Source: Marsupella aquatica
Lineage: Eukaryota > Plantae > Marchantiophyta
Direction of reading: 5' to 3'
NCBI GenBank assembly: GCA_973895155.1
Contig: OZ316897.1
Location: 13,949,375 to 14,013,374, forward strand
Length of the DNA stretch: 64,000 nt
Shown here: one piece after another, positions 7,393-52,037 of the stretch
Layout: the number at the start of each line of letters is the position of its first letter
Numbering within the stretch: position 1 is the first letter of the stretch
The notes under the pieces: model-generated
What the model was told of the DNA's origin: nothing
Databases searched by the model: none
Seen by the model: the letters and a program-made list of their open reading frames with translations, nothing else
Translations under genes and position numbers: made by a program

Positions 7393-9922
7393 TGTCACCT
7401 GCTTATCAAACGATTTACACGACAAATACGTATTTACTCCTACTAAAATCGTTTGTTATCGTATGACGGGAACGTGGAGGGACGCTATTCGGATTCTATT
7501 GCATGTAGGATGAGTATGTTTGATTCCGCTCCCGAAAGTGTAATTTTTGATCAAGTCTACCGACTAGCCTCTCTACTTTTGATCAAGTCCCATGGACTAC
7601 ATCACACACACTCATACTGGTCGTTGGTGGAGTGCTGTCACCACCCCTCCTACTCACATGGTTGACCAAACCGTGCAAGGATTCCTTAGACACTTCTTGG
7701 GGAAACAACACAATCTTGAACCAGAAAAAATAACGCCACACCAAAACTTGAGGAATCAAACCAAATCCATATCTTTTGGCAAAACGGCGTAACACATTGC
7801 AAGGACAACCCGGCCTCCTGCCGTCTGCCCAACTACTGCCTCACTTGGGCAAGTGCTACACCTCTACCTCACTACTCTGGCTTGATTCCCTCTTCTAGCT
7901 ATGAGCTAACTTCCCTAAGCAAACACTAGACTGAGTTCCCCCCCTCACTACTCCGGGGGTCTCCCCCTAAATACTAGAAACAAACATACCAAAGCCCCCC
8001 TCACGGGGTCACAAAGGTGGCGGCTACCCTAGCGGCGCTGCTAGAACCCTTCATGAAGAAATCCCTAATCCTAAAGCATGCGGCACATACATGCTCCTAA
8101 AACCCTAATCTAACAATGGGACCGACGGTGCCTTCGATGGCGCCCCAACATTGCTCCGTGAACCGCGAAAATGCAAGGGACCCCACAATTGCCCAAACTA
8201 GGTGCCACTCTGATTGCACCTCTGAACTCACCCCTGGGTAGCCCTGCTCCTCCTGATCATGAATCACCAAACCGCTCACGAAACGGACATCGGACGACCA
8301 AGTTATGGCCATTTCAGTATCCCGTACCAACCAACTTCGCGGGGCCCTATCTTCCTCATCCTCGCTCTGTTTGAGGAGCGCCGCCTCTTGTTGGAATCAG
8401 CTCCACGAGCTCTTTCCAACAAACCCATGAGTGCCCACTTCCAAAAAAATTCCAAAGTCAAGAAGTCGTACGACCAAGTCCGCACGGCCACCCTAGTCCT
8501 CCTCCTCACTCACTCACGGTGCCATGGCTTGAGCCCCGTGAGTTGGTCTCCTCATCGCTCTCCATTGGAGTGGATACCACTCCGCTAAACAAGGACTCAC
8601 TTGAGTCCACCACCTCCTATCCTATCTATCTACCCTGCCTACTAGCCTCAATCCTCCTGATCGCCACCACCGGTCCGTTGTAAAAGGAGGGGGCCCCTAT
8701 ACTTGTCAAAACTAAAATTTTCTCATAATTCACTTCTGAAAACATATCCGAGGAGCACTCCTCTTCCTGATCACGGCTCCGTAAACGGTGCACAAAACGG
8801 AGGTCAAATGGCCAAGATATGATCGTTTAACTTTGCACGGGACACCGTCTCTATCCATTTCGTCCGTACAACTCCAGGGGGCCCCGGCTTTGCAAAACAT
8901 GGATCATGGTTTCCTCTACCTCCTCCCTCCCTTGCAAAGCCGGGACCTCCTGCCGTACGGACGTCCGTACGGCCTCATAACCCCCGTATTCTCAAAAAAT
9001 GCAATCTGTTGTATCTCCCCCGTCTTAGCTCTGTTTTGGCCATGTGACACATTGTTGGATTCAGCTCGGCGAGCTCTTTCCAACAAGCCCATAGACTCCT
9101 GATTTTGAGATGATCGAAAATCTGATGTTTGTACAACCAGGGTCCGTACACACGGTGGAAGCAAGCACAAGAGGGAAAGGGTTTAGGGTTTAGGTATGGG
9201 AAGAAACCCCACAAGTGAGAATAGAGAAAAAGGGAAGGAAGAAAGTGTGAGGGCCCCTTCTACGGATGTGTTCTTCTACGGAGTGCCTCTCCACGGAGTG
9301 GGGAAGGGAAAGAGAGCAAAAACCATGTGAGAACCACACAAAGGGTGAAGGGGAACACAAGTGTGGGAACCCCTCCCTTCTAACGGCCCTCCCACCATCA
9401 CTACTCCAAGATTGCTTAGTTTGTCATTTTACGGGCGTTGAGGTCCCTCAAGATGTCACTGTTTGATATGAACCTAAAATCAACTAGAGAACCTCAGTTT
9501 TGCATGGGGCTCATTGAAGGCTTCAAAATGGATCCAAACATGACCATGTTTGGAATAGTACTAGCGCAGTAACGTCTATTTTAAGTTTCAACATTTTCTA
9601 TATTTTGGTCATTCTTTCCATTTTGCGCCTAACGTGGAGCCTCCGACCAGCCCCCACCCCTCCAAGATGCCCACACCTTGGCTCCAAGTCCTTGGGCTGC
9701 CTTGTGGCCTCCTTGTACCCCCTCAATGGTTCCCTTGTCATCCATCACCGCCCGACACCCCTCTCAACTCCGGCCTTCGGTTGTCGCATCCATTTATTAG
9801 AACTAACAAAAATAAAAAAAATCGAAAATCCAACCACTTTTACTACACCTACTTATCTTTCTACCTATATACGTAATTATAAGTCATCACTAAGTTACTA
9901 CCAGGTTTGGGGCCCTGTCACA
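7393..9922. mobile_element. Solo LTR (family L, 2530 bp), probably Ty3/gypsy-type
   Basis: TGTCACC...TGTCACA termini, perfect 5-bp TSD ATGAA (7388-7392 and 9923-9927), homologous along its length to 11277-13853, no internal coding domain. Confidence 0.92.
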
Positions 9923-11276
9923 ATGAACCTGGTCAGTTCATCCACATTTGAATCTAACTCCAAACCAATGTCACACCATTCTAAGTAGGGTTAGAGTGTA
10001 TTGTACTATCTAGATCTGTATGCTTGGTATGTGTGCTATATGAGCCGATAAGGTTTTGTTAGGTTTGTGTGAGAGGATAATTCTCTCTTGTGAGGCATCA
10101 AAAGGTTATCTTTCAATGCTGAGCCTTGGAGAGAGGAGCTCGTGTTGTGGCTATGGTGGTAGAGCTCCTTCTATGTGACATGGATTCCTTGAGTGTGTTG
10201 GCTTGACATATGTGTGTGATCGGATCGAACACAATCGAGTGCGTATTGTTGATGTCGATTGTGGTTCGATTCTATTGAGATTACATCAAAAGATCTGAGG
10301 AGCTTCAAACTCTGTTGTGCGGACAGAAGCTTGGTTTGATTTTGATTTTGTCATTGACAGTTTGTGGTAGCTCGAATTGATCGGATTTGTGTTTGACACG
10401 GATTCGTGGTATCTCAGATTGTTGGTTCTATTGATTCAGTACACCGTTGCTATTCAATCTGGTTCTGGCCGAGCTTGAACGTTGTTGGATCTGAATCTGG
10501 TCAACTGACAATTCAAAGGTTGTTGATTGAGTTGGAGTGGGAACAACAATGCTTTTTATGAAGGAAAGTGATGACTGAAGGTTGCTATTTTGATGGGGAG
10601 AATTGTTGTTTCTATCGCGCTATTGTTTTGTGGACAAATCTATTGGAATGTTGCTGAGTTCACAACAACATCAATTTGAGTGCTCACAATTGCGTTTTAT
10701 TGTGAAAGAACGCTTGTGAATGTCCCAAAACCGTGCGTGGCAATTTTGTGGAGGTCGAGAGTGATCAACATTGCTGTTTTTGTGAAGGAAACCACAACAG
10801 ATGTTGCCAAATTTTGTAGCGACAATGCAAGGGGTTGCTGCGTAGTCGATGCTGCATTTTTATGAAGAAAAATGACTGGTGATAGTCGCGTATATTGCCA
10901 AATCAATGTGTGGTCGGTTGTATCTGTGGATCCAACAGGGCAGGTCATCGACACAGCCGGTTGCTGAGTTTTTTTGTGAAGGAAATGGAGGACCAAAACC
11001 GGAAATGTTGTAGAAATTGGATTGAGTCTCGATGTAGCGAGCGTGGCTCACTCTTTGGCCTTGGTGTTTAGAGGCTTCGAGGCAACTCATGGTAACTCGG
11101 GACGAGGGGCATGAGGGCGGAGTAGGAGCGGGCGGACCAACAATTACGTGAGGAGAATTGCAAGTGCTATCATTTTGGAGTGGCAGATTGGTGCATAATG
11201 ACAAGTGAGAGGTCACCCATCCCAAAGCTATTCCTCCCCTCACGCGCTTAACTAGCTAGTTCTTATGTGGTGCATT

Positions 11277-13853
11277 TGTCACCTGCTTATCAAACAATTT
11301 ACACGATAATTACGTATTTCCTCCTACTAAAATTGTTTGTTATCGTATGACGGGAACGTGGAGGGACGCTATTCGGATTGTATTGCATGTAGGATGAGTA
11401 TGTTTATTTCCGCTCCCGGAAATGTAATTTTTGATCAAGTCTACGGACTAGCCTCTGCTTTTGATCAAGTCCCATGGACTACACCACACACCCTCCTGCT
11501 GGTCGCTAGTGGGGTGCTGTCACCACCCCCCCTACTCACATGGATGACCAATCCGTGCAAGGAGTCCTTAGACACTTCTTGGGGGAAGAACACAATCGTG
11601 AAACAGAAAAGATAACGCCACACCAAAACTTCAGTAATCAAACCAAATCCATATCTTTTGGTAACAAATCGTAACACATTGCAAGGACAACCCGGCCTCC
11701 TGCCTCACTGGGGCAAGTGCTACACCTCTACCTCACTACTTTGGCTTGATTAATTCCCTCTTTTGGCTATGAGATAACTTCCCTAAACCAACACTAGACT
11801 GGGTTCCCCCCTCTACTCACTACGGGGCTCCCCCCTAAATACCAAAAAAAACACCAAAGCACCCCTCATGGGGTCACAACGATGGCGGTTACCCTAGCAA
11901 CGTCGCTTAAAACCTCATTCAAGAAATCCCTAACCTAAGTCATGCGGCACATACATGCCACCTAAAACCCTAATCTATTACGGAACCGACGGTGCCTTTG
12001 ACGGTGCCAACTACCACTCCGCTAAACAAGGACTCACTTGAGTCCACCACCTCCTATCCTATCTATCTACCCTGCCTATCAGCCTCAATCTTCCTGATCG
12101 CTGTCGTGCGTATACACATCGCTACACAATATACATCGCTTGTCACATACATCCAAACATAGTCACACTGCCACATCACAAACACAAGAGAATGGAATAC
12201 AAGTGGAACTCATGTCCACACATGTCCAAAACCCACAATAATCTCCATACAATCGGCACAACGATCCCGGTCAATAATACCCCATCGATCCCGCACCGAT
12301 CCGATTACACACGTATGTCAAGCCAACGCACCTTGCACTACTCAAGGAATCCACGTTACACAAGCAGAGCTCACAGCCACCATAGCCACTCAAGCTCCTC
12401 TCTCTCCAAGGCTCAACATTGAAAGATGACCTTTCAATGCCTCACAAGTGAGAAGTACCCTCTCACACAAACCTGATGGAACCTTATCGGCTCATATAGC
12501 ACACATACCAAACATACGGATCTAGATAGTACGATACACTCTAACACTACCTAGAATGGTGTGACATCGCCACCACCGGTCTATCGTAAAAGGAGGAGGC
12601 CCCTACAATTGTCGAAACTAAAATTTCCTCAGAATTCACTTCTGAAAACATATTTGGGGAGCCCTCCTCTTTCTGATCACGGCTCCGTAAACGGTGCACA
12701 AAACGGAGGTCAAACGGCCAAGATATGATCATTTAAGTTTTTACGGGGCACCGTCTCCCTTCGTTTCGTCCGTACAACACCAGGGGGCCCCGGCTTTGCA
12801 AAACATAGATCACGGTTCCCCGTATGTGCTGCTACCTTCTCCTTCCCTTGTAAAGCCGGGACCTCCTGCAATACGAACGTCCGTACGGCCTCAAAACCCC
12901 CTATTCTCAAAAAATGCAATCTGTTGTATCTCCCCCGCCTTAGCTCCATTTCGGCCGTGTCCATCGTTGGATTCAGCTTGGCGAGCTCTTTCCAACAAGC
13001 CCGTAGACTCCTAATTTTGAGATGGCCAAAAAATTGATGTTTGTACAACCAAGGTCCATACGCACGTTGAAAGCAAGCACAATAGGGAAAGGGTTTAGGG
13101 TTTAGGAATGGGTGGGAATCTCACAAGTGAGAATAGAGAAAAAGGGGAGGAAGAAAGTGTGGGGGCCCCTTCTACGGATGTGTTCTTCTACGGATGTGTT
13201 CTTCTACGGATGTGTTCTTCTACAGAGTGCCCCTTCTACTGAGTGGGGAAGGAAAATTGTGGAAAACTATGGATTGAGGAAGGGAAATTGTGGGAGTCCC
13301 TTCCTTCTAAGGGCCCTCCCACCATCACTACTCCAAGATTGTCTAGTTTGTTGTTTTACGGGCTTTGCTCAAGGTCCCTCGAGATGTCACTGTTTGATAT
13401 AGACCTAAAATCAACTAGAAAACCTCAGTTTTGCATGGGGCTCATTGAGGGCTTCAAAACAAATCCAAAAATTATCATGTTTGGAATAGTACTAGCGCAA
13501 CAACGTCTATTTTAAGTTTCAATGTTTTCTATATTTTGGTCATTCTTCCCGTTTTGCGCCTTACGTGGAGCCTTCGACCAGCCCCACCCCTCCAAGATGC
13601 TCACACCTTGGCCTCCAAGTCCTTGGGCTGCCTTTTGGCCTCCTTGTACCCCCTCAATGGCTCCATTGTGATCCATCTCCACCCAACACCCCTCTCAACT
13701 CCGGCCTCCGTGTGTCGCATCAATTTATTAGAACTAACAAAAATTAAAAAAATTAAAAATCCAAACACTTTTGCTACACCTACTTGTCTTTATACTTATA
13801 TATGCAATTATAAGTTATTGCCAAGTTACTATCGGGTTGGGGCCCGTGTCACA
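11277..13853. mobile_element. Solo LTR (family L), second copy, with a nested insertion and an internal deletion
   Basis: TGTCACC...TGTCACA termini, perfect 5-bp TSD GCATT (11272-11276 and 13854-13858); lacks about 430 bp present at ~8146-8574 of copy 1. Confidence 0.92.
12102..12566 (-). mobile_element. Stand-alone B-A terminal-repeat unit (465 bp) of the split-LTR gypsy family
   Basis: Reverse complement reads TGTCACACCATTCTAGG...(B)...GAGATTA|TTGTGGGTTTTGG...(A)...GCACGACA, the same layout as 26685-27151. 4-bp TSD TCGC (12098-12101, 12567-12570); the empty site CTGATCGCCACC is visible in LTR copy 1 at ~8657. Confidence 0.9.
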
Positions 13854-14443: not shown

Positions 14444-14503
14444 CTCGGGGGTCTCACAATATGGATGCCTTCCCATCACTCGCAATATTTTTAGGCCTCG
14501 GAC
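14444..14503. mobile_element. Single end of a CTCGGGGG-TIR MITE
   Basis: CTCGGGGGTCTCAC...TTTTTAGGCCTCGGACCA closely matches the reverse complement of the right end of the MITE at 23997-24290. Confidence 0.7.
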
Positions 14504-17441
14504 CATAAGGTGAGATATCTTTGATTGGATAATAGTGGTGAATACAGTTCCAGGGAATTTGGAACGTATTGTAAGGAGCAGGGGATTACCCGCCATCTCA
14601 TAACAAGTTATACTCCTCAGCAGAATGGTGTTTTTGAGAGACTCAACCAAACACTATTGGACCGCTCGAGGAGTATGTTGAGTCAATCATGCTTACCACA
14701 TGAGTTTTTGGCTGCAGCTGTCAACACTGCAGCTTATTTGGTAAATTTTTCTCCATCCAGTTCTATTGGATTCAAGATGCCATTTGAAATGAGGTACGAG
14801 CGTCCAGCAGATTATTCACATCTGAGGATTTTTGGATGTGATGTTTATGTGCTTACACCTTCCTAGCTTCGATCCAAGCTGGAGTCCAAGTCGAAGAAGT
14901 GCATTTTCCTTGGCTATCAAAAATGTGTGAAGGGTTATAGGTTATGGAATCCAGTAACCTGTAAACTAATTGTCAGTAGAGATGTGTCCTTTAATGAATC
15001 CAAATCATCAAAGGAGGGGGAGAGTTCTCAGGACTCCCATACTGACAAGGAAAAATCTCCCATCCCGGACCAGGTTGAGGGGGAGATTAGCTATGATGTT
15101 GTTCATGACAAGAGAGATGGAGAAGCTCCGGGCATGGAGCTGGTTCCTGGGATGGAACAAGAGGAGCAGATTGTTGCTGGGGTACCTCAAATTCAGCCAG
15201 CAGCAGTAGCAGATCAACCTGAGTCATCTACTAGAAGAACTTCTAGTCGTTCTACTAGAGCTCCTACCAGGTATGGTCAATGGGCAGACTCATCTAAGCT
15301 AGATGATATTGACATTGCACGTGATGAAGATGATATGGCTTTGATCTTAGAAGAAGGAGAGTCTTCTTCGTACGGTGAGGCTTGTGCTTCAGAGCAAAAG
15401 CATGAGTGGAATACAACAATGTAGAGGGAGTTGCAATCTTTGAGTGACAACAAGACATGGGAGCTGGTGGAGCTTCCAAAAGGTCAGCAAGTGGTGGACA
15501 ACAAGTGGATTTACAAGTTGAAGGACAGTCCTTCAGAGGGTGGAGATAAGATCTACAAGGCACAGCTTGTTGCCAAGGGATTCACTTAGGAGAAAGGAGT
15601 GGATTATAATGAGGTCTTTTCATCGGTGACTAAGTATTTCACAATTTGGATCTTATGTCAGCTTGTTGTGTTTTTTTAATCTGGTGATGGATCAGATGGA
15701 TGTTGTTACTGCTTGTCTCTATGGCAACTTGGAAGATATGACCTTCATGAGACAACCGCTAGGCCTTAGTATGCAGATTGCTCAAGTCCTTGTATGGATT
15801 GAAGGAATCTCCCAGACAGTGGAACAAGCGGTTTGATGATTTCATGTTTGCTCAAGGTTTTACAAGGATCAGGTGTGTATACGAAATCAGTCAAGAATGA
15901 TGTATTTGGTTTCATCATTATGGTGATCTATATGGATGACATGCTGATTGTGGCTAAAGATCAATTTGAGGTTGACAGTCTCAAGGCAAAATTGAGTGTT
16001 GAATTCAGGATAAAGGATCTTGGTAAGGCCAAGAGAATCTTAGGGATGGAGATTTTTAGGAACTTTGGTACTGGACAGTTGTGCTTGAGTCAAGGCCAGT
16101 ATGCAAGGAAAGTACTTGCACGATTCAACATGGAGAACTGTAAGCCAGTGAGTATTACTTTAGCTTCACATTTCAAGTTATCATCGGCTTTCTCTCCTAC
16201 GGATGCTCTAGAGAAAGGTCTGATGGCTAAGATTCGTTATGAGAAGGCAGTAGGCAGTCTGATGTATTTGATGACTTGTACTAGGCCTGACTTGGCCCTA
16301 ACGATGGGCAAGGTTAGCAGATTCATGTCAAATCCAGGGAAGATACACTAGGAAGCTGTGAAGTGGATTCTTGATCAGATATCTAAAGGGAACACAGGAC
16401 TATGGATTACTGTTTGATAATAGATCAAATAGAAGGTTAGTTGGCTATGTAGATTCTAACTATGGAGGCTGTCTGGACACAAGGAGGTCTACAACTGGGT
16501 TTGTTTTTACTCTTGGAGGAGGATGTATCAGTTGGAAATCTACCTTGCAAAAGTGTATATCTCAGTCTACTACAGAAGCAGAGTATGTTGCAACAGCAGA
16601 AGCAACAAAGGAAGCAATTTGGTTGGACAAGTTGATAGCGGAGATGGGTTTAGAGCATGGCAAAATGACTCTAAACTGTGATAGTCAGAGTGCTCTTCAC
16701 TTGGCTGCTAACCAGGTGATGGATAGTAGGGTGAAGCACATTGATATCAAGTACCATTTTATCAGGCAAACAATGTCTGATAAAACTTTTGAGCTAGTCA
16801 AGATTGATGGAAAGCTCAATCCCGCTGATGTCTTTACCAAAGTGATTCCTTTGGAGAATTTCTCAAGACACGGTGCTACTTTGCAGGTTTTGCAGTTGTA
16901 GTACAAGTAGAGTTATGTAGCAATGTGTGACTATTTGTATATGGATTACTCATTCCTGTTTGGCTACGGCTTAGTTTTAGTTAACCCTTGTGGTTTTTAG
17001 GGGGAGACTTGGTTTGGTGATTGTCTAGAACTTCCCGCAGAGGATTCCATATGGTAGCATTTAGTCCAGTCCCCAAGATAAGAATCAAGGGGGAGTTTGT
17101 TAGATATTGCTCTAGTCTTGTGACTCATGAGCTAACCACAGTTAGTCCAACTCGGGTTAGGACTTAGCTATTGTTAGCGATAGTGCTGTTGTGTATTAAG
17201 CCAGGGCTGATGCCAGACCCTGGTGGAACTTAGGCTCATTGTTACGGAGCTAGTTGAGAGATAGGGAGAGCTTGTGTTGTGGATGCTTGGTATGGCCGGT
17301 CGGCCTAGAGTGCAGTAAAGCTCTTGTGTGTTCCCATGGACGTCGCCTCATATGGAGGTGAACCACGTATCTCTCTATGTCGACTATTGTGCGTTGGATG
17401 GTTTATAGGCTTGCCGTTGCAAATGTCGTCTATGCTCAACA
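14504..17441 (+). mobile_element. 5'-truncated, decayed Ty1/copia element (integrase core, RT, RNase H, PPT, 3' LTR)
   Basis: LDNSGEY...TPQQNGVFER..LRIFGC (integrase); YKAQLVAKGF, SLYGLKESPRQW, IYMDDMLI (RT); GYVDSNYGGCLDTRRSTTG, STTEAEY, KHIDIKYHFIR (RNase H). INT-RT-RH order; stops and frameshifts. Confidence 0.95.
17098..17441 (+). repeat. 3' LTR of the copia element (344 bp)
   Basis: Preceded by PPT AAGGGGGAG (17087-17095); TGTTAG...TCAACA termini; no 5' partner in the window. Confidence 0.7.
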
Positions 17442-17579: not shown

Positions 17580-17757
17580 GGACACTATGGAGAGGATAAT
17601 TAACTTACAATGAGATCATGCCAATTGGTACTTCTAGCCTTGCAACCCTTCATGTTGAAGCTTGCAAGCTTCTTACTCACATAATTGCCCTGCGTTAACC
17701 TTTCCAAGTCCCTATGCATCTCCGTACCCAAAATATTATTGGTTGCGCCTAGATCTT
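17580..17757 (-). mobile_element. Ty1/copia RT fragment (downstream half), target of the gypsy insertion
   Basis: Minus strand reads DLGATNNILGTEMHRDL..LTQGNYVSKKLASFNMKGCK; joins 27156-27340 in frame as KMKDLG once the gypsy and one TCTT copy are removed. Confidence 0.8.
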
Positions 17758-18086
17758 TGTCACACCATTCTAGGTAGTGTTAGAGTGTATCGTACTATCT
17801 AGATCCGTATGTTTGGTATGTGTGCTATATGAGCCAGTAAGGTTATGTTAGGTTTGTGTGAGAGGGTAGTTCTCTCTTGTGAGGCATTGAAAGGTTATCT
17901 TTCAATGTTGAGCCTTGGAGAGAGGAGCTTATGTGGTAGCTATGATGGCTGAGAGCTCTCTCTCTATGTAGCGTGAATTCCTTGAGTGCAAGGTGCGTTG
18001 GCTCGACATACGTGTGTGATCGGATTGGATGGGATTGAGTGCGTATTATTATTGTCGATTGTTGTTTGGATTCTACTAGGATTACA
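17758..18086 (+). repeat. 5' terminal repeat, B segment (distal part of the LTR)
   Basis: Direct repeat of 26685-27014; starts TGTCACACC, ends GGATTACA; contains hairpin CATTGAAAG-GTTAT-CTTTCAATG. Confidence 0.9.
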
Positions 18087-18095
18087 TTGAAAGAT
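18087..18095 (+). promoter_or_regulatory. Putative self-priming primer-binding site
   Basis: ACATTGAAAGAT (18084-18095) is the exact reverse complement of ATCTTTCAATGT (17897-17908) inside the LTR; there is no TGG-type tRNA PBS. Confidence 0.65.
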
Positions 18096-18829
18096 CAGGC
18101 ACCAAATTCTGCTATGCGGATTGTGCAAACAAAAGTTTGTTTCATGTTGATTGAGTTGGCAACGGTTTATGGAAATCATTTGAATTTGTTGTGTGGATCC
18201 GTGGTAGCTTGGATCGCATTGAGTAGATCGTTAGTCTTTCAATCTGCTACAATCTGTATTTTGTTGTTGGGTTGGCAAATGCGGGTTGTTTTGAGAAGAG
18301 AGATCGCAGATCATTGGAAATCATAGATTGCTCAATGTTTTGCCAGATTTTTAAGGAGATAGTGTGTCGATCTGGGACCAGTGCTGCCATTTTGACGGAC
18401 AATATGTTGTTATCCGCGTTTTTATGAAGAAAATTTCTGCTGCTGAGTGCGAATGTTGATAGATCGGGCCCACCTGAACCGTATTCGACTCCAAAATTGC
18501 AAGATCTATTTTTGTTGCGGACCGATTGCTGCATAGTCAACGCCGGATCAACTATGTGCCGGATCTATGATTTTTGTGAAGGAAAAGAGGACCAAACGTT
18601 GTAGTTTTTGCCGTCAACAGTAGGCCGATTGAACCCCGCGTTTGTGCGCTAAAAGTTGCAGTTTTGTTGACTCGACGATACCTACATCGTCGTCATGATC
18701 TTCAGTGATTTTGATGAGGACTTTGTGACCAGTTCTCCTCGTCATCAGGTGATTGCACCTTTGTTGTGGGATGTGGAAGAGATGTACGAGGCTACAAAGA
18801 GCCAACGACGATACTCTGGTGCAATTGGC

Positions 18830-19810
18830 ACAATTGATCTGGATGACTTTATCTAGGAGTTTGATACGTGATGCGATATGCAGACATTGCGTAACACCAC
18901 GTTATTTACCCTTTTCATGGCATGGAAGGGATTATTTTAGCATTTGGAGGGGTCACCCATGGATGACTACCATGAGTTTCAGAAGGCTCATTTGGTTGAA
19001 ATTGAAGCATGGAGACAACATTGGTCGCCTAATTACGTGTCCATCACCTATGGCACTAGTGCGGCTACCTAACCCATTGCCACAACTGCTACTTCTTCTA
19101 GCACTACTAGCCAGAGTGGCACACCATCCACTAGTAGCACTCTAGCAGCATTCATCGCTACTCCTACTGGTGCGATTCTGGCAGGGGCTGGAGCTGCGCC
19201 AACATTTAACCCTGTGGTGGATTTCTTTGAGGTATTGAAGCAGAACTATCAGGGTGTGAGAATATATAAGCTGAAGGGTCTCCAGGAGTTTGAGCCCACG
19301 ACTGGAGAGAGTCTACGTGAGGCATACACTCGTATGCGCAAATTGATCACTATCACCAAGAGAGTGACAGAGACTCAGGCAGTCCAATTTTGGTATGCAA
19401 TTCTGGACAGAGAATTGCGACGCAAAGTGAGAGATGTCACTCTACTTAGGGATGCAGATCCCACGTTGGCAATTGTTTTCACACTTTCTAAGCGCATTGA
19501 GTTCAATATGGTGAATGAGAAAGTGGTGACTTCCGGATTTTCCAAGCCAGGAAGCATCAAAGGCTGCATCTACACCCACATCACAGCCTACTACACGTAA
19601 GAGCCAAAGGAAGAAGCCCACTACACAGAAATCTACCAGTTAGAGACCTGTGTCTTCCTATGCTGGGCAACAATCAGGATGTTGGACCTGTGGTGGGGAT
19701 AATGCACAACAATATTGCCCTAATCATAGAGGGCCATAAGGGGCCTCAACACTTGATTAACAAAAGTGTGACCATTGTGGAGCTCCTAGACACACCAAGG
19801 ATAGGTGTTT
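18830..19810 (+). pseudogene. Gag with CCHC zinc knuckle
   Basis: LKQNYQGVRIYKLKGLQEF...GESLREAYTRMRKL (retrotransposon gag-like); CDHCGAPRHTKDRC = CX2CX4HX4C at 19767-19808; a degenerate knuckle CWTCGG at 19680. Confidence 0.8.
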
Positions 19811-20699
19811 CTCACTCCATCATGAGTTACGGAGAGGAGGACAACGCATACATGATTAGGAAAGAGGAGGTAGAGGTGGTGATCGTGGCCGAGGTATGCC
19901 ACATGCAGGAAGACAGGGGAGGTGATGTTGCTCCTACTGTGATCACATATCCTAAGGATGCTAAGATTTCTCAATTGGAGCAACAACTAGCTGCTATGAC
20001 TAGTTCTCAAGTGAGGTTTGCTTATGGTGATGGGGCTTCTACATCTCATGGAGCTTCCACATCCTATGGGATTGATGGAGCCCTTGCCACCATGGGATTC
20101 ATGTGTGGCACTGCGGATATTGATGCATCACCAGCTTTGACATGTGGGGCAGCCAAAGCTCTTGAGCCTCGAGGAGCAGTAGTGGAGCTAGATCCACAGA
20201 GGGGGGATGCACGTTGTCAGACAAAGCTTCCTCAATCTTTTACATTGTCAAAGATAGTTTAGATTGTCTCCCGAACTGCCTCTATGAACCCGATTCGGAC
20301 AAACCGTGGTGTGGGTAAGTTGGCAAAATCATAGGATGTTGCAACAGGGATGACAGGTACCTTGTTGGGGGTGGCTACCACCATAGTGCGCACCCCACTA
20401 TCTTCAACAACATATATGCTGACATTGGAGGTTGGTCTAGCTAATGTGTTTAGATTAGCAGCCAAATTATGCGAGGATACTCCAGTTTTGGCTTTTCATG
20501 CAAAGGCAACATGCAGTTATGGAGCAGCGGAGTTGACACCACCTACTGCTATTAGTCAGACATGGCATGCAATAGTGGAAAAGTTGATGGATTTGTTAGC
20601 ACGCCCTGCATTTGAGAGGATTAGGTTTAAACCTAGCGTTGTGTCATTGGATAATTGATATCTTTTGATTAGTTGGGCCTACTAGAGCAGTATACCAGC

Positions 20700-21330
20700 C
20701 AAAGAGAGTGTTACTGGATACTGGTGCCCAGCCCTTAATGTTGGGTAAGTCTGTAGTACGAGGATTGGGATTGCATCCAGATGATCTCGAGGAATGTCCC
20801 TTTCCTATCCAGACTTCATTGGGGGGACCTACACCCACACAACCCGGGGTCCTCACTTCTTTTCTTCCTACCCATCACGCGCGAATAAGTATAGGGTTTT
20901 TTTATTGGGTTTAGTGAAATACTTTTAAATTTTTGTTGAAGAACATTAGGGTTATTTTAATCCAATTTTGAGAATTATAATAATCATAGGGTTTTTTAAA
21001 ATCAAATATGGGAATATTATTGGAATATTCCATTAAGTTAGGGGTAAAAAAATTCCTAAAAAAAACTTTATTGACTTAACTTTTAGGGTGTTTATTCTCC
21101 CAAAACTTCGAGCGTGATATGGGACACCCCTTGGATTGGGGCCCCCGAGCCACACAACACATCACCAGACAACCACTTGACTTGCGAATTCAAGAGGGTC
21201 ATGCAAAGGATAGCTCTCACATACAAACGTGAGCTATTTTGACTAAGGCAGAGTCCTATGATGTGTTGGTGGGATGTACGATGCTTTATCCCATGGGATT
21301 CATCCTTGATTTTTGGGATGAATCAGTTTT
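20700..21330 (+). pseudogene. Aspartic protease, split by a MITE
   Basis: VLLDTGAQ (DTG at 20717-20725), IQTSLGG flap, and YDVLVG after the insertion. Confidence 0.85.
20843..21149. mobile_element. MITE (307 bp), 8-bp TSD, hAT-like
   Basis: TSD CCACACAA (20835-20842, 21150-21157); imperfect TIRs CCCGGGGTCCTCACT / ATTGGGGCCCCCGAG; AT-rich interior. Confidence 0.88.
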
Positions 21331-21735
21331 CTATCAACCTGCTTGGCATCTGGAGATGCTAGATTGAGTAGATTGCCAGTGCGATTTAGTGGACCTATGG
21401 GGGGCCCTAAACCCGCACCATTATCTTTGGCAATATTCATTGGTATGATCACTGATCCTGATGATTTGATTGAGGGCAACGCACATGCAGCAGATATTCC
21501 AGCAGTGGAGCAGTCACATGAGGAGAAGGTCATGTGTGGGTTACCTATTGGTAGTGTTGTGCCACTAGTGTGGGGCACTAGCCAGGCCTTGCCACAAATA
21601 GCAGCACGATTGGTACATGATGCATGGCGTCATGCTTTTACACCATAGCTAGGAGCATAGTAGTCTCCTACAGGTGGGCCAGTGACTCTTTCACCATTGG
21701 ATGCCACTCCCATTGCATGACAATATCCACCATAG

Positions 21736-22690
21736 GGTATTTGTTTGTTGGATTTATTTGCTGGGATTAGCACTAGATTGGCTGTTGTTTTTCAGGTAGG
21801 AATTCCAATGCATCGTTACTTGTATGTGGAGACAGATGAGACAACATGAAGAGTCTCATTGCACCATGTGGCTATGTTGGTGGATTGTTATCCACAGTTA
21901 TTGCCAGTGGATGTTGTTTGTGACTATCAACATGCACTACTTATTGATATTTTACTGCTGCCCAGGGTGGATCATTTGGATTGCGTTGGCCCTATTGATT
22001 TGGTGATTGCTAGTTGACCATGTTAGGGCCAATCTAGAGCTGGAGTTGGACATGTACTTCATGATTTGCATTGTTTTGGGAGATATTACGGGTGTTACGT
22101 CATCTCTAGTTGCATCAGACACAGTCTCCAGCCTACATTTTGGAGTATGTGTCACTCTCGGGTGATCATCATCAACGGATTGTTGCTAGTGTTCATCAGG
22201 TGAGGTCTTGGACCTGCTGTGTTATTGGATGTTGTACGTGTGGATTCTTGTGCACATTGTCCACGTTTGTGGTGGACTAATTTGTTACCAGGTGAGGTGT
22301 TGAAGTGAGCATTTAAAAACATTCCTCGCTTGCCAGCCTTGGTAGTAGATGATATTTTGGATCCAGGGTGTTGTTCACAGGGTGTGACCTAGCCTAACAG
22401 ATCTCCATTGGCCATAGTCAATGTGGTTGGGCGTCCACATTGTGCATTACCCACTTTTGTGAGTCACTCTACTTCATATGCTTTCAGTGCATATGGCCCT
22501 GGACTTGTGTGGGATACAGCTCTACGATAGTTAGTAGAGCCCACTGTTGATGAGAGACAACGAGCCATGGGGTTCTCCACAGGTACAACTGTTGTTGCAT
22601 CTGTGTCAAAGAGTTCATGCCGCCAGGTCCTTGGCCAAGCCATGGATTTGAATTGTTTGACTTGGATTGTCAGCTTGGGAGTAGCAGAGC
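21736..22690 (+). pseudogene. DNMT3-like C5-cytosine DNA methyltransferase domain inside the gypsy pol
   Basis: Motif I LLDLFAGIST (21745) followed by GIPMHRYLYVETDE; motif IV GPIDLVIAS*PC*G (PC at 22018-22023); motif VI YILEYV (ENV position, ~22140); motif VIII LLD..RVDSCAHCPRLWWTNL (~22225-22284); IX-X ERQRAMGF...RQVLGQAMDLNCL (~22550-22660). Order and spacing match the DNMT3 catalytic domain. Confidence 0.85.
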
Positions 22691-23049
22691 AGTTTTGGAT
22701 GCGCTTTGCTGGTGTTACAGATCGTCCATTGGTAGCTTGCGGCCTATTGAGACAGTAGTGGCCACAGCTAGGAGCGAGCAGACAGTCCATGGACCTATGG
22801 CAGGATTGGCCAAGGCTGGACAGATTGTTGAGCAAGAAGGGACTGCTCAAACTAGCAATCATCGGCTATCTTCTTCTACCCTACAAAAAGATATTAGGGA
22901 TTTGGTGGAGAGTTGGGAGCCATAGATTGGTCCTAAGTTAACAAGGGAGGAGAGACGTCGCATGCATCGATTCCTAAAGGAGTTACTAGAATTTTTTTGC
23001 ATTCAACATGAAGGATTGGGGACATTGAAGGGCCCTGACATTCATTTTG

Positions 23050-23720
23050 AATTGGCTAGTGATGCCCCAATCTTTCTAGATCATACTGTTACAATGACAT
23101 GGAGAGAGCTTTGATTCGGAGCAGAACTCAGGATTTGTTGGAGGCTGGTTTGGTGGAGATCTCATACGAGGAGTATGCATCTGCCATAGTGATGCCAGCC
23201 AAGAAGGATGTGCATGGTAATTACACGGATAGGCACATGTGTGGTGATTATTGACCTATTAATCGTCAAACAAAATCTGATTGATATGCTATGCCCACAC
23301 TTGAGAAGATCTTTGATGCTATGGGGCATGCAAATTGAAGGTTTTTAGTTCATTGGATCTGAGGGCAGGGTACCATCAGCTTCCAATCAGACATTCTGAC
23401 AGGTCCAAAACAACATTATGGGGAATTGATTTGCATGGCAAAGATCGTTTATATCAGTGGTTGTTCTTACCATTTGGGTTGAAGAATGCACCAGCTGAAT
23501 TCCAGAGAGTCATGGATCAAATTCTTGCAGGTTTGGATTTTGTTAGATGTTACATTGATGATATTTTGGTCTATTCTTCCACTGTGGAAGAACATCAATA
23601 GCACTTGCAGATTGTGTTGGAGAGATTGAGAGAACATGGGTTGAAACTCCATCCTAGCAAGTGTAAGTTTGTCCAAGACCAGATTGAATATTTGGGCCAC
23701 ACTATCTACCCAAGGGGATT
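23050..23720 (+). pseudogene. Gypsy reverse transcriptase
   Basis: SLDLRAGYHQ, LPFGLKNAPAEFQRVM, YIDD (23551-23562), KCKF...YLGH. Confidence 0.95.
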
Positions 23721-23969
23721 GGGTGTGCAACAGACCAAGGTGGAGGCCATAACACAGATTCCTTGTCCTACTGATATGAGTAGAGTTTGTGCATTCTTGG
23801 GATTGGCGAGCTACTACAGGAGGTATGTTAAAGGATTTAGTCAACTTGCTAAACCTTTGACCATACTCACTAAGTTGGATCAAGAGTGGATTTGGGGTGA
23901 TGACCAGGAGCATGCCTTTCAGGAGTTGAAAGAAAGATTGGCATTATCCCCTATTTTGAGAAGACCCAT

Positions 23970-24650
23970 TTCAAGGAGACCATTTCAGCTACACACCTTG
24001 GGGGTTTCACTTCCACAAAATGACATATCACGTGCGACGAAGGATAGGGTCATTTTATTGGTTCTAAGGGAAGACTTAAGAATTTTTGTAGAAGAACAAC
24101 AGGGTCTTTTTAATTCAATTTTGAGACTTATAAGAATATTAGGGTCTTCTAATCCAATTTTTGGAATATTCCAAGAATATTCCAACTTTATAGAGGTTAA
24201 AAAATGAATTTGTTTCTTACATTTTAGGTGGTCCGAGGCCTAAAAACGTCATAGGTGACGGGGAGGTCCCCATATAGTGAGACCCCCGAGCTACACACTG
24301 ATTGGAGTGGAGTAGGGCTTGGAGCAGTGCTAACTCAGAAGGATGATGAGGGGAATGAGTTTGTTGTGGCTTATGCCAGTAGATCAAACAATTCAGCAGA
24401 GGCTAATTATAGCTCTTATGAGGGAGAGTGTTTGGCTGCAGTGTGAACTGTTGCACACTTTCGTTGCTACTTGTTTGGTAACCCCTTCACCTTGGTCACT
24501 GATCATCGGTCTCTCAAGTGCTTAATGGAGTCTAACAAGCTTACAAAGAAGCTTGCACGATGGGCATTGTTGTTACAGGAGTATGATTTCCAGGTTGTGC
24601 ATATGCTTGGAAAAGTGAACTTGCATTGGATGCAGATGGATTGAGTCGCA
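23970..24650 (+). pseudogene. Gypsy RNase H, split by a MITE
   Basis: PFQLHT|[13 protein letters not shown]...[40 protein letters not shown]. Confidence 0.9.
23997..24290. mobile_element. MITE (294 bp), 8-bp TSD, same family as 20843
   Basis: TSD CTACACAC (23989-23996, 24291-24298); TIRs CTTGGGGGTTTCACT / AGTGAGACCCCCGAG; removing it restores LHTDW. Confidence 0.9.
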
Positions 24651-24795
24651 ATCCATGTACCAGTCAAGAGGATAAGACTAGAGCCAGATGGCATGATGAG
24701 TCAGATAAGGAGATGGTGCCAGGATGGCATGCATCTGTCTTCCTTTGTTGGGTTCCAGCATGCAATGGGTCTGTGAACTCTACTTCAATCATTGA

Positions 24796-24943
24796 ATGAA
24801 GTAGATGATGAGTCTACAGATATGGATGTTGGTGAGATTGTGGTTGGACAGCAAAATATTCACAACGATATGAAGTAGATGATGAGTCTACAGATATGGA
24901 TATTGGTGAGATTGTGGTTGGACAGCAGGATATTCACAACGAT
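24796..24943 (+). repeat. 74-bp tandem duplication within pol
   Basis: ATGAAGTAGATGATGAGTC...CACAACGAT occurs at 24796 and 24870. Confidence 0.85.
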
Positions 24944-25099
24944 GAGAGAGTGTTGGAATACCTAGCACTCATTCTATTGGTGGTAGTGTTGATGCCAAGG
25001 AGCGTGACAGGGTTTTGCAAAGAGCCAAGAGGTTTTGATGGGAAGGAAACCATCTTTTGAGAGTACTACGTGATGGTAAGGTATTGGTGGTACCAAAAC

Positions 25100-26170
25100 C
25101 ATCACAACGAGTACATTTGGTGCGACATGCGCACGAGGAGTTGGGTCACTTGGTGTGAAGCGCACTTACAGCTTGCTGCAGACACAATATTGGTGGCGTG
25201 GTATGCACACTCATATCCAACAACTGATAGCTAAGTGTGTGGTATATGATCGAGTGAGAGCATCCTTCAATGCTCCCACTCCCCAGTTGCATCCATTGCC
25301 GATCATGGGTTTGGGGTACAGATGGAGTTTGGACTTTGCTGGTCCATTGTACCTCTTACCCAATGACATAATTGATATGTTTTGGTTATGGTGGAACACT
25401 TCTCCAAATGGATTGAGCTAGTAGCGTTGCCAGATAAAGTTAGTGGAGGAGTTGCTGCCACATTTTTGGATTGTGTACTCAATCATTTTGGAGCACCAGC
25501 TGAGGTGTTGACTGATCAGGGAATTGAGTTTCGTGGAGAGTTTGAGAGTTTGTGCAAGCAAGCTCTGATTAATCATCATACTACTTCTTGTGACCATCCT
25601 GAGGCAGATGGATTGGCTGAGAGAATGATGCAAACTGTGAAGAGAGGATTGCGCAAGTATGGCTTGCAAGTTGGTCATCTGGGAATTGAGATCTCTAATT
25701 ACCTTGGTTAGCTATGGGCTACTGTTCAGTTGGCAAACATCACTTGCATCCTTCTCACCTTATTTCTTGCTCTATGGTAGTGAGCCAAATTTGCCAGCAA
25801 CTATTCGTCGTGATACTGCATCGGTTGTGAACTTGGAAAATCCTGATGTTTGGATCAAGGTTTGTTTAGAGAGGGCAAATATTTTTGAGAGAGTCATGCC
25901 CATGGCCTTTGACAGCCTTGCCATTGCTCAACATCGTGATACTTTGCGGTATGCCACTATTTGTGGAGGAGGTTATCGTGCAAGAATTTGATGATTTCAT
26001 CCTGGTGATTATGCTTATTTGCAGCAGACAGCACCAACTACACTTGATGTGACTGCGGGTTGGACCATTTTATGTGTGCGTGAAGTGTTGCCTTCTGGTG
26101 TACTGATGTTGGAAGGGCTTGATGGTATGATTTGGAAGGATCATATATGTGCACAATTGTGCACCATGTC
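25100..26170 (+). pseudogene. DDE integrase
   Basis: HAHEELGH and a partly decayed HHCC zinc domain, WSLDFAGP, VEHFSKW, VLTDQG.EF, HPEADGLAER, FSPYFLLYG. Confidence 0.93.
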
Positions 26171-26229
26171 ATCTTCCAAACATTGATGGTACGGTGGATC
26201 CAAGCTTAGCACATGTTCGTGCTAGTTTG

Positions 26230-26373
26230 AAGTGTATGTTGTGTGGATCTACTCAGGGAACAACTACTATGTTAGTTTGTGATAAGTGTTCTAGAGGATG
26301 ACATATGTCGTGTTTGACACCACCATTGCAGGTGATTCCTAGTGGATTATGGTTGTGTCCTCAGTGTCGGTGA
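26230..26373 (+). pseudogene. C-terminal PHD finger
   Basis: KCMLCGSTQGTTTMLVCDKCSRG*HMSCLTPPLQVIPSGLWLCPQCR* = C4HC3 with the canonical CLxPPL...W.C..C signature. Confidence 0.92.
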
Positions 26374-26536
26374 ATCCGACTAGTTATCAATTGTGTTCTC
26401 TTGGAAGATATGGATTACAAGTAGGTGATCGATGGGGCTCACCTGCACCCAGCCTCCTGATCTTCACACCTAAAAGGTGTATATCAACATTGTATAACTC
26501 ATGGCTAGCTAGAGTTAGGGGACCTTAATCCCAACT

Positions 26537-26546
26537 AGGGGGGCGA
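26537..26546 (+). other. Polypurine tract
   Basis: AGGGGGGCGA immediately before T-TGTGGG, the start of segment A. Confidence 0.75.
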
Positions 26547-26547
26547 T

Positions 26548-27151
26548 TGTGGGTTTTGGACATGTGTGGACATGAGTTCCGCTTGTATTCCATTCTCTTG
26601 TGTTTGTGATGTGGCAGTGTGACTATGTTTGGATATAGTGACAAGCGATGTATGTTGTGTAGCGATGTGTATGCGCATGACAGCTGTCACACCATTCTAG
26701 GTAGTGTTAGAGTGTATCGTACAATCTAGATCTGTATGTTTGGTATGTGTGCTATATGAGCCGATAAGGTTCCATTAGGTTTGTGTGAGAGGGTAGTTCT
26801 CTCTTGTGAGGCATTGAAAGGTTATCTTTCAATGCTGAGCCTTGGAGAGGGGAGCTTATGTGGTGGCTATGGTGGTTGAGAGCTCTCTCTATGTAGCGTG
26901 GATTCCTTGAGTGCAAGGTGCGTTGGCTCGACCTACGTGTGTGATCGGATCGGATCGGACAGGATTGAGTGCGTATTGTTGGCGTCGATCATTGTTCAGA
27001 TTCTATTGGGATTATTATGGGTTTTGAACATGTGTGGACATGAGTTTTGCTTGTATTCCATTCTCTTGTGTTTGTGATGTGGCAGTGTGACTATGTCTAG
27101 ATGTATGTGACAAACGATGTATGTTGTGTAGCGATGTGTATACGCACGACA
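26548..27151 (+). repeat. 3' terminal repeat block A1 (26548-26682) - GC - B2 (26685-27014) - A2 (27016-27151)
   Basis: A1 and A2 are ~135-bp direct repeats; B2 repeats 17758-18084; the A1/B2 junction is the palindrome TGACAGCTGTCA. Confidence 0.92.
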
Positions 27152-27155
27152 TCTT

Positions 27156-29021: not shown

Positions 29022-29435
29022 AATGATCTTCTGGGCTCTGCGAACCTCGAAAGAAATCGAAGAGCAAACTCCCTTCTTGCAGTCTGTTCGTAATTGCTTT
29101 TGAATTTTCCAGCTGAATGATCTTCTGGGCTCTGCGAACCTCGAAGGAAATCGAAGAGCGAACTCCCTTCTTGCGTCTGTTCGCCAATGCTTTGAATTTT
29201 CCAGCTGAATGATCTACTGGGCTCTGCGAACCTCGAAGAAAATCGAAGAGCGAACTCCCTTCTTGCGTCTGTTCGTAAATGCTTTGCATTTTCCAGCTGA
29301 GAGGAGATGTCAAAGTGCGGGAGTGCAGCCAATGATCTTCTGCGCTCTGCGAACCTCGAAGGAAATCGAGCAGCGATCTCCCTTCTTGCGTCTGTTTGTG
29401 TATGATTTGAATTTCCCAGCTGAGAGGAGATGTCA
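29022..29435. repeat. Minisatellite, 4 copies of a 92-94 bp unit
   Basis: AATGATCTTCTGGGCTCTGCGAACCTCGAA...TTTTCCAGCTG starts at 29022, 29116, 29208 and 29331. Confidence 0.9.
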
Positions 29436-29813
29436 CTGTGCAATTGTGTAATCCAGAAGGTCGTCTCTCTGCTGGTCCTGCAGTTGAAATTTTGATTACG
29501 ATTCACAAGTACTGATTAGAATTAAGTTGGCGAATTTAAATGTGCAGTAATATGTAAGGATTCCTTCATTCAGGTCTCTCACTGGACGAGCAGCTCGCGC
29601 TACGGAAACAGCCATCTCCGGGGGAGAGTGAGAAATGAAGACCGCGGACGATCGAGCGATTACTGCAATGGGCGATTGGAGCAAGAAATAGTTGCATGTC
29701 CAATTGGACGGAATGGCTACGACAGAGGATTGGAATCGAATTGCAAAAGTGCCCCGGATTCAGAAACTAATTCAATTTTCCCCGAGAATTTCAAATCGAC
29801 TGATTAGTTCAAG

Positions 29814-50200: not shown

Positions 50201-51728
50201 GTGTTTTCCTACAGTATTTTCGGATCTTCACATCACCCTAAATTTAAGGATGACTTAAGGATTTTGACTACCTGGGGTCTGTGGCTCGGTGGAAACCCAC
50301 TAATGAAAGAGCTAAAACCCAGTAAATTTTAATCAAAAGTGGCAAGAGGAATTATGGACTCTCATGATAAGTGATTCGAAACTCTCAGGCTATAGGTGTG
50401 GTCTAATCAATGTTTGTTGGTCAAAGGGACATCTATGTTCCCAGAACACACACACAACGGCACACAATTGTGTGGGTGTCTGATGAGAAAGCAGAAAAAG
50501 CAAATTAGACCTGGTGAACCGTAATTGTTTTTGTGACAACGAACAACAGGTCAATTATAAACACACGGATAATTGAAGCAGTGTAATGTAAAGAATTTTC
50601 GCCAATAAAAAAAAAACCTCGCTCCACTCTAAGGAAAAAGGTACAAATTACGCTGCTGCGCCTCCCCACCCAACCCCACCCGGTTCGGCTTCCTTGGGAG
50701 CGAGACGCCGATGCCGACTGGACGTCTGGAGCCGAGCCTGGCGGCCCGGGATTGGCCAGGAGGATCCCCTTGGGATGGTCGGGGGATCGAGGCGCTCGCG
50801 GGAGCTGAGGTAAGTAGATTCCTTCATCTCGGTGCTCGCGGGCGCTGAGGAGGTGGGGTAAGCAGATTCCTTCACCTCGGCGCAAAACAATTCGTTAGTT
50901 TATGTTGGGGTAGAAGTGTACACTGTATAGTTCAGTCGCCTACCTTATGTGACCCCTAGCGTACTTCGTACTCGCGCAAGGATATTAATTAATTGTCCCC
51001 GTTGATGTTCCAAAGATTCAGGTGCCCGGAGCAAAGAGAACGGGAGTCGAAAATGTTTTTATTGACCACAATGACTCGCATGGTCCAATGCAATTAACAG
51101 GAACTATTTTAGAGATTGTTTGAACGGAAAGAGTATTGTTCAGCACTTTGGTCACACTTGGTTCAGCATATATAAAGCAATCTAGCTAATACCGGGTGCT
51201 GCTATGGAGGGAATGAGGAGGGTGAGTTTTGTACTCTTCATTTTAGCGGGTGAAGAGTACAAAACTAAGATGGATGGACCACTTTCAAACATTTGCTGAC
51301 CATAGATAGTATTATTTTGTGTGTGTAAATAGTCATACCTTTGGTGCTAAGATGTGAAGCACTACCGTAAAAACTTGGAGTTGCCGAGGTTTTAGCGGAC
51401 GTCCTACATAGGATGTAAAGTGTTACTCGATGTTTCTAGCCATAAAAGAAACAAGGCTGGAAATAACCAAGGAAGTTTGAGATTTCCTGATTTCTAAGGC
51501 ACATTGCAGCACAGTTGTGGCTGTCAAACAATGCACTTTGTGAAAAAATAATGAGCAATCCTGAACGCTGGTTTTCATCCAATGGAAGCTACTTTGAATA
51601 AATTTGTGATTCCTTGGAAACAAGCCAGAGATAACTGCTATGTTTTCTGACTGCTAGATCCATCTGCGTTAACAGGTCAAATGTTGTGCTCTGTCCAAGC
51701 ATGAACTGGGTTGGGAGGAAAAGTGGGG

Positions 51729-52013: not shown

Positions 52014-52037
52014 GGGAGAAGAAAGCAAAAGCAGCTT

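Follow-up and report, generated by a model that had tools for sequence, protein, structure and literature searches.

A decayed Ty3/Gypsy element with split repeats and an in-frame stop, and the DNMT3-type methyltransferase domain that it shares with relatives from liverworts to green algae

The window analysed here (the whole 64,000-nucleotide stretch of Marsupella aquatica DNA) harbored a Ty3/Gypsy element at 17758-27151 on the + strand, within which a decayed DNMT3-type methyltransferase domain lay at 21736-22692 (+). The element comprised a gag with zinc knuckle, a protease, the DNMT, a reverse transcriptase (RT), an RNase H, a DDE integrase and a PHD finger, all on the + strand, and was framed by a 4-bp target duplication (TCTT, 17754-17757 and 27152-27155). 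Its terminal repeats were split into two parts, A and B. The 5' copy of A (17758-18083), which begins with TGTCA, was 92% identical to the 3' copy (26685-27013), with 298 of 324 positions identical and transitions making up 22 of the 26 differences. A predicted primer-binding site (PBS, 18084-18095) directly followed A and was complementary to the element's own sequence inside A, where the predicted self-primer (17897-17908) displayed an exact 12-nt PBS complement with the 5' arm of a hairpin immediately upstream. At the other end, a polypurine tract (PPT, 26537-26545) stood immediately 5' of the first copy of B (26546-26682, ending in GACA), which was 93% identical (127/137) to the second copy (27014-27151, ending in CGACA) abutting the end of the 3' A. 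The junction between the first B and the 3' A (26678-26689) was palindromic, TGACA-GC-TGTCA, and is the predicted integrase cleavage (att) site.

Between these ends, a decayed gag (18773-20256, zinc-knuckle region 19680-19829, conserved linker) was recognised by its match to Marchantia Mp_4g09160. It was followed by a decayed aspartic protease (20660-21349, LLDTGAQ at 20708-20731) whose Pfam match (E=2e-4) fell below the cut-off. The DNMT3-type domain, with motifs I-X interrupted by stops and a frameshift pair, was followed by TAG CAA TCA (22853-22861), the conserved end of ORF1 in a type I readthrough context (UAG-CAR-YYA). Downstream were a decayed RT (22914-23712, YIDD at 23551-23562, RVT_1 E=1.9e-32), an RNase H (23917-24623), a decayed DDE integrase (25080-25711) with H2C2 zinc domain and rve core (D 25323-43, D 25505-22, E 25607-27) and, at the end of Pol, a PHD finger with one stop (26230-26370, PF00628 E=3.2e-12). 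The protease was split by a later AT-rich insertion with a 9-bp duplication (20835-20843 / 21150-21158), and the RNase H by a second one with a 10-nt duplication (23987-23996 / 24289-24298). These insertions (20835-21158 and 23987-24298), both inside the element, were about 300 bp long and related to each other (76% alike across 182 nt), and had G-rich/C-rich ends and duplications of 9-10 nt; judging by duplication length, we take them to be Mutator-like MITEs. A 62-nt piece related to them was present at 14444-14505, and the linker between RNase H and integrase contained a 74-nt tandem duplication (96%, 24796-24943).

Other remnants of the same family were found upstream. A solo A+B (12102-12566, -) with a 4-bp duplication, GCGA, was inserted in a long repeat of another element, and its duplication could be read against the empty site near 8661-8664. 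A third copy of A with PBS (9969-10323, +) marked the start of a truncated family member, and a 40-nt stretch at 10451-10490 matched the RT over those 40 nt only (73%). Two long direct repeats of about 2.5 kb and about 89% alike (7393-9922 and 11277-13853) are probably the LTRs of another element; the second contains the solo A+B, and the truncated copy starts between the two. A decayed Copia pol (14528-16901, +) with integrase, SH3, RVT_2 and RNase H-like end lay just upstream of the element. In the frames scanned, a single host gene was recognised, by an exon of the SHI/STY zinc-finger type (DUF702, E=8.7e-29; 59888-61189, -). SHI/STY is a land-plant family, and this exon and the tree position of the DNMT both indicate that the DNA comes from a land plant. 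Degenerate tandem arrays occurred at 51641-52642 (units of about 55-160 nt), 29022-29441 (92-123 nt) and 54490-54781 (60-116 nt).

The preliminary description had reported methyltransferase motifs in a translation read through stops, and by coordinates all of them were located on the + strand where they had been placed: LDLFAGIS (21748-21771), DLVIAS*PC*G (21997-22029), ILEYV (22137-22151), AHCPRLWWTNL (22252-22284), ERQRAMGF (22552-22575) and RQVLGQAM (22621-22644), all +. C5-MTase motifs I, IV, VI, VIII, IX and X were thus displayed in canonical, unrearranged order. Stops alone did not account for the reading, as ILEYV (motif VI) lay in a different frame, shifted by a frameshift pair at about 22065-22200. 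The main frame contained seven stops (21847, 22015, 22024, 22201, 22306, 22390 and 22528), the one at 22201 lying at the edge of the out-of-frame stretch. The window copy is dead and its catalytic domain is not intact, while intact domains were present in relatives, e.g., the metagenome locus L068 and Mp_4g09160. The Pfam search that had been suggested with PF00145 gave a divided result: no family matched in any of the four pieces of the decayed window copy (stops read through as X), and seven of the eight relatives scanned passed the cut-off, the eighth being a Sphagnum gene model with a gapped domain. In a formal sense, the ground for refutation named in the preliminary description, a lack of any C5-MTase HMM match, thus applies to Pfam on the window copy, but not to the relatives.

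More sensitive comparisons recovered the domain in the window itself. A profile built from 18 relatives matched 21682-22686 (E=2e-76) and, separately, the out-of-frame piece 22065-22211 (E=5e-7), whereas controls on the other strand and on reversed frames gave a best E of 1.1. With stops read through as X, a phmmer search of the window domain against PDB returned DNMT3C on top (E=7.9e-5), and the top 29 rows were all DNMT3-type (DNMT3C first, then DNMT3A/B). The DNMT3-like identity put forward from the motifs was borne out by both the family profile and the fold of an intact relative: the profile ranked DNMT3A/B/C (E 9e-25 to 4e-18) ahead of DRM (7e-18 to 2e-13), HhaI (8e-10) and DNMT2 (4e-8), and the AlphaFold model of intact relative P0023 (not of the window copy; pLDDT 88.7) matched DNMT3A with E=9e-20 and TMt 0.84. 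The catalytic and SAM-binding residues C140, Q141, E183, R223 and R225 were invariant in 18/18 alignment rows, distant lineages included. Conservation of the PC motif was 79/79, a figure biased by its being part of the scan pattern. DUF3444 was found in none of the relatives scanned.

Searches with the window DNMT retrieved 18 longer proteins and 43 of similar length, at 38-72% identity, and the organisms named among them were Marchantia polymorpha, Calypogeia fissa, Riccia sorocarpa and three Sphagnum species. Scanning metagenomes brought up 100 matches, of which 80 loci (L numbers) were retained; these formed 64 distinct groups, mostly of one family, which groups with Sphagnum. Viral contigs were considered as a source of relatives and dropped, since one of 92 candidates matched, weakly (34%) and with no element, and they were excluded from all counts. 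The DNMT occupied the same place in the majority of the 80 metagenome loci, as it did in proteins of Marchantia, Calypogeia, Sphagnum, Closterium and Klebsormidium. A protease was found upstream in 62 of the 67 loci with room for it and an RT downstream in 52 of 60, so that the DNMT belongs to the element family, as had been proposed, and is no one-off insertion.

A wider search yielded 407 representatives at E<1e-30, with two layouts. The order protease-DNMT-RT was found in bryophytes, in Closterium and, as far as the DNMT, in Klebsormidium nitens GAQ93235.1, while RT-RNase H-DNMT-integrase-PHD was found in Scenedesmus, Haematococcus, Chromochloris and many unnamed proteins. Well above 100 chlorophyte or unnamed polyproteins (among P0071-P0329) carried the DNMT between RNase H and integrase, and many such polyproteins had no precomputed PF00145 match, which makes the family under-annotated. 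The suggested relation to algal elements held for GAQ93235.1, whose zinc knuckle, protease and DNMT matched the family profile with E=3.8e-67. The two frames of intact L068 contained only protease, DNMT, RT, RNase H, DDE integrase and PHD. No tyrosine recombinase was found in these two frames, and no chromodomain followed the integrase in the window element or in L068, where a PHD finger stood instead.

The DNMT domain was under purifying selection between families, as shown by dN/dS values of 0.12-0.37 (24 pairs; five further pairs were saturated); within families, values of 0.48-0.74 (5 pairs) were as expected of decaying copies. Quick trees of DNMT and RT, drawn at midpoint, unrooted by host DNMT3 and including no Klebsormidium RT, displayed similar groups: window and bryophyte sequences grouped together (support 100 for DNMT, 98 for RT) and the chlorophyte layout formed its own group (95 and 90), with the base unresolved. 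Klebsormidium branched separately from the window clade in the DNMT tree, where the base was likewise unresolved, and the out-of-frame entry L074_upstreamRT carries no weight. A captured retrocopy of a host DNMT3, or a secondary insertion confined to this copy, might have been suspected, given that Pfam misses the DNMT in the window and that host DNMT3 genes exist in seed-free plants according to the accessible part of PMC6453930. Such a reading deserves virtually no credence: it is refuted by the DNMT being found at one and the same place in dozens of copies, as well as in named proteins of liverworts, mosses and algae, and disfavoured by the purifying selection and the similar grouping of the two trees. 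The two real secondary insertions in the element, moreover, bring duplications of their own.

The preliminary description had asked whether a consensus would show protease-DNMT-RT as one open reading frame; in the window clade, a conserved in-frame stop instead parts the DNMT from the RT. ORF1 comprised Gag, protease and DNMT and was terminated by an in-frame TAR-CAR. Counted from the RT, TAR-CAR-YYN was found 17-24 codons 5' of it in 47/53 loci, and the other six showed a second stop replacing CAR (two), a different stop (two) or no in-frame stop (two). DNMT and RT were in frame in 38/50 loci (three with insertions dropped), with the stop at the same place in 38/38, and a -1 frameshift after the DNMT was dropped for this reason. 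The exact CAR-YYA context was present in L030, L067, L068, L069 and the window, and was kept although the linker proteins were unalike and dS was near saturation. L068 was open over 1369 codons, continued with TAG CAG TTA and was then open in frame for 1047 codons. Proteins of intact relatives ended 55-130 residues after the DNMT. The stop can be dispensed with in some relatives, since DNMT and RT lay in one frame in those from Closterium.

Plant viruses use UAG-CAR-YYA as their type I readthrough signal, which functions with UAA too (PMC3542737, in its accessible part). From its context and conservation, the stop is very likely read through to yield RT, RNase H, integrase and PHD. The stop could also be a true end of ORF1, with RT-RNase H-integrase made by a separate route (reinitiation, an internal start or splicing): the commonest context, CAA CCC, that of the largest family, differs from the consensus by a single base and is followed by an ATG two codons later, and public gene models stop here or skip across the stop. 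Frame and CAR codon are, however, maintained in divergent families, and no Met stood between stop and RT in L030, L068, L069 or the window, which makes a separate route quite improbable. With readthrough, as the DNMT lies before the ORF1 stop, it would be made at Gag levels and the RT by readthrough.

The ends of the element were arranged as A-internal-B-A-B, with two bases between the first B and the 3' A in the window. An ordinary LTR element does not fit, as two complete identical flanking LTRs were not found in the window, L063 or L074, all three of which displayed the full A-internal-B-A-B; B-A-B tails were read in L021, L044 and L076. Six of six insertions read at both ends had TG..CA ends with 4-bp target duplications, one of them against an empty site. 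These ends and duplications point to DDE integration. The mirror form, A-B-A-internal-B, was not seen, with B preceding none of 20 5' copies of A, some of which are the same insertion. B started immediately after the PPT and A stopped immediately before the PBS, and at the A.B joint the end of A and the start of B were fused with one shared A. The B-A joint showed CA-NN-TG in the window, the L063 family, L067, L068 and a second element in L033, being a perfect palindrome in the first three and departing from one by a single base in L068 and L033. A CG was kept beside the B-A site in the L063 family, L067 and L068, and in the window at the outer end.

Direct integration was weighed as the origin of the copies with the shorter form A-internal-B (L016, L023, L024, L033, L058). 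L023 (short form) and L075/L076 (long form) proved to be the same insertion, with flanks 94-96% alike and a shared duplication, so that a later B-B recombination, or a collapse in the assembly, can account for the short form. At L049 12674-13570 (the same as the L050 copy), the 3' half was scrambled, with inverted A and gag pieces, and the outer ends and duplication were intact. This copy, which may be an autointegration product, still had 10 nt of PBS where A meets B, the residue that poor trimming of a circle junction would leave. An ordinary two-LTR Gypsy element without DNMT and with a tRNA-type PBS (L053 1398-9228) was nested in the DNMT of a family member.

The complement between primer and PBS was 12 nt in the window, a length reached in 0/20000 shuffles, up to 16 nt in the L063 family and 16 nt in L068, where A and PBS were read from a contig end in an apparently collapsed assembly. 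Primer and PBS sequences differed among all three families. The self-primer lay 26-33 nt downstream of a TATA-like box in the L063 family and L068; no TATA box was found 30 nt upstream of it in the window. Near copies of the PBS just upstream of the self-primer formed a hairpin with it (window 17884-17908, L063 at about 1830-1858, L068 at about 8822-8855). With 25 extra upstream bases, a local hairpin beat the primer/PBS pairing in the window, and in the L063 family an exact complement of at least 10 nt was present in only 10/20 copies, two of them at a second site. On the strength of the complementarity, self-priming of the Tf1 type, from the element's own PBS complement, is a likely prediction.

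Taken together, the ends suggest a replication and integration route that departs from the ordinary one in its last steps. The true LTR would be B+A, and ordinary reverse transcription from two primers, with the self-primer initiating cDNA, would give BA-internal-BA. The ends of this product would be joined to form the A.B joint, after which integrase would cut the internal B-A palindrome, a staggered cut leaving processed integrase ends. The genomic A.B joint corresponds exactly to the right end of such a cDNA fused to its left end. The integrated A-internal-B-A-B would then be a circular permutation of BA-internal-BA, i.e., end-joined cDNA opened at the B-A site of the upstream LTR. End-to-end joining with cutting at the internal site is the account of the ends that we moderately favour. 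Integration via end-joined cDNA has been debated at length for retroviruses.

A two-LTR circle is symmetric and has two equal B-A sites, so that the mirror form would be expected; its absence calls for an added asymmetry, either a one-way RT jump that makes the joint or a mark on one site. In the first case, RT itself would make the second B: the plus strand would jump from the right end of the cDNA to the left, over one shared A, and copy B, and integrase would trim at B-A with no ligated circle. Such a jump would account for A-internal-B-A-B being the sole form (mirror form 0/20), and PBS and B each begin with A in all three families; its product is identical to that of the circle, so that sequence cannot favour it further, and we regard it as rather doubtful. 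In the second case, the old strands of the two LTRs would be on opposite sides after plus-strand transfer, and methylation as the mark of one B-A site is a speculation that we offer here.

The best PDB matches of the PHD finger were CHD4, PHF12, PHF21A, KDM5 and ATXR5. PHD fingers of the CHD4/PHF12/PHF21A/KDM5 class are readers of unmodified H3 tails (H3K4), and by analogy the PHD on the integrase most likely reads histone H3. REM1 is a Chlamydomonas element that also has a PHD finger. As to the DNMT, we favour, with moderate confidence, its packaging and the methylation of element cDNA; judged from related enzymes, the packaged DNMT would most likely methylate new cDNA in CG or CHH context. 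In the accessible parts of the sources, SymbioDIRS-Dnmt3 carries an active CG-methylating DNMT3 (PMC5890265), PpDNMT3b performs de novo CG and CHH methylation in moss (PMC6453930), and the Klebsormidium domain gave no DNA methylation in yeast, a result that its authors deem inconclusive (PMC5890265). CpG depletion values were 0.27-0.70 for elements and 0.38 for the window copy, and are not specific to self-methylation, as the neighbouring Copia (0.25) and the whole window (0.57) were likewise depleted.

The DNMT could instead be active or DNA-bound away from cDNA, acting on chromatin at or after insertion while the PHD steers the integrase, or be a non-catalytic part of the particle. The variable position of the DNMT (upstream of the RT in streptophytes and, in chlorophytes, between RNase H and integrase), the chromatin proteins matched by the PHD and the negative yeast assay (PMC5890265, accessible part) lend this some weight. 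The maintenance of catalytic and SAM-binding residues across distant lineages speaks against it, as does the Gag-side position, which suggests a particle-borne enzyme, and on balance we consider it unlikely. Our main reading thus combines a DNMT packed at Gag level, readthrough of the stop, and self-primed, end-joined cDNA cut at the internal B-A site, with a probability of roughly 0.6 for the whole. A broader proposal, tentative and on the whole improbable, is that of a Gypsy class spanning the green lineage that always passes through an end-joined intermediate cut at an LTR-internal att site, in which DNMT3 at capsid stoichiometry would mark the cDNA and the mark on the CG beside B-A may choose the site. 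If such a class were real, a captured methyltransferase would be tied to split-repeat replication.

Gypsy elements bearing a DNMT3 had been described as acquired in Klebsormidium; they appear to form an old family that extends over the green plants and has numerous copies in Sphagnum and Marchantia. Marchantia Mp_4g09160, Mp_8g17980, Mp_6g11220 and Mp_2g26090, which have a DNA_methylase domain or label, are coding regions of the element and not host genes; several Marchantia gene models with a DNA_methylase domain are the ORF1 of such elements, and any tally of host DNMT3 genes is affected by this. LTR-finding programs would overlook these elements, since the target duplication does not flank the pair of A repeats. 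From the stop behind the DNMT, the enzyme is expected to be made in large excess over RT, which renders the role of a retrotransposon DNMT testable in a model plant, and the element ends point to integration via permuted, end-joined cDNA, recorded in every genomic copy.

The closest known element is KnitGypsy-Dnmt3 of Klebsormidium nitens, a Gypsy element with DNMT3 and DIRS-like repeats (de Mendoza et al. 2018, PMC5890265; this and all following statements on published elements refer to the accessible parts of the sources). It shares with the window family the Gypsy domains, an unrearranged, intronless DNMT3-type domain under purifying selection and, going by the legend of its Fig. 4, DIRS-like A-coding-B-A-B repeats. 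GAQ93235.1, a protein record ending 12 residues past the DNMT, has zinc knuckle, protease and DNMT in the same order as the window family, and we infer that it is a copy of KnitGypsy-Dnmt3. The acquisition of the DNMT was placed in the K. nitens lineage, as later papers repeat, and the DNMT in the Pol ORF (PMC5890265); in the window clade, unlike in that ORF, the DNMT is not in the open frame of the RT and precedes an in-frame stop, and the family spans liverworts, mosses, Closterium and chlorophytes. For KnitGypsy-Dnmt3, the accessible text of PMC5890265 has no mention of readthrough, PHD, self-primer, PPT, att site or target duplication, and 'Marchantia' occurs 0 times in its main text and three supplementary files (main supplement aside).

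In the open literature (subscription journals, preprint supplements and the main supplement of PMC5890265 lying outside the search), no description of a DNMT3-bearing Gypsy in land plants was found. The available parts of PMC11982613, PMC12344493 and PMC9915684 describe none, and that of bioRxiv 10.64898/2026.05.21.726589 names only 'streptophytes (Gypsy-DNMT3)'. Apart from the DIRS-like repeats of KnitGypsy-Dnmt3 (PMC5890265), no Gypsy elements with A-internal-B-A-B ends were found described in the open literature either.

Among self-priming elements, the chromoviruses Tf1/sushi and Tcn1 (PMC6317226; bioRxiv 10.1101/2022.12.06.519325) likewise have a PBS complementary to their own 5' end, and in Tj1 and Tosmo of that group an in-frame stop is read through to Pol. 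Tf1/sushi and Tcn1 differ in their two ordinary LTRs and their chromodomain, and such a stop lies in this group between Gag and protease; the window family combines split repeats with a DNMT and a PHD finger, and its stop stands behind protease and DNMT. Neither 'methyltransferase' nor 'PHD' occurs (0 times each) in the accessible text of PMC6317226. PAT/Ngaro/VIPER elements (PMC6681497) share A1-coding-B1-A2-B2 repeats and leave solo A+B remnants (SIRE), and SymbioDIRS-Dnmt3 (PMC5890265) carries DNMT3, but their tyrosine recombinase was found in neither frame of intact L068. Foamy virus integrase is able to cut a palindrome inside a circle, giving processed ends (PMC1180852); there, the palindrome sits where the two LTRs meet and the provirus has the ordinary form, while the window family has its predicted site within the LTR and a permuted integrated form. 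Host PpDNMT3b has a similarly unrearranged DNMT3-type catalytic domain, and the host DNMT3 of seed-free plants differ in carrying DUF3444 and in being genes, not element domains (PMC6453930). Compared with these systems, the kind of element was already known from KnitGypsy-Dnmt3, and what is new here is its wider range, the readthrough layout and the unusual integration route that its ends suggest.
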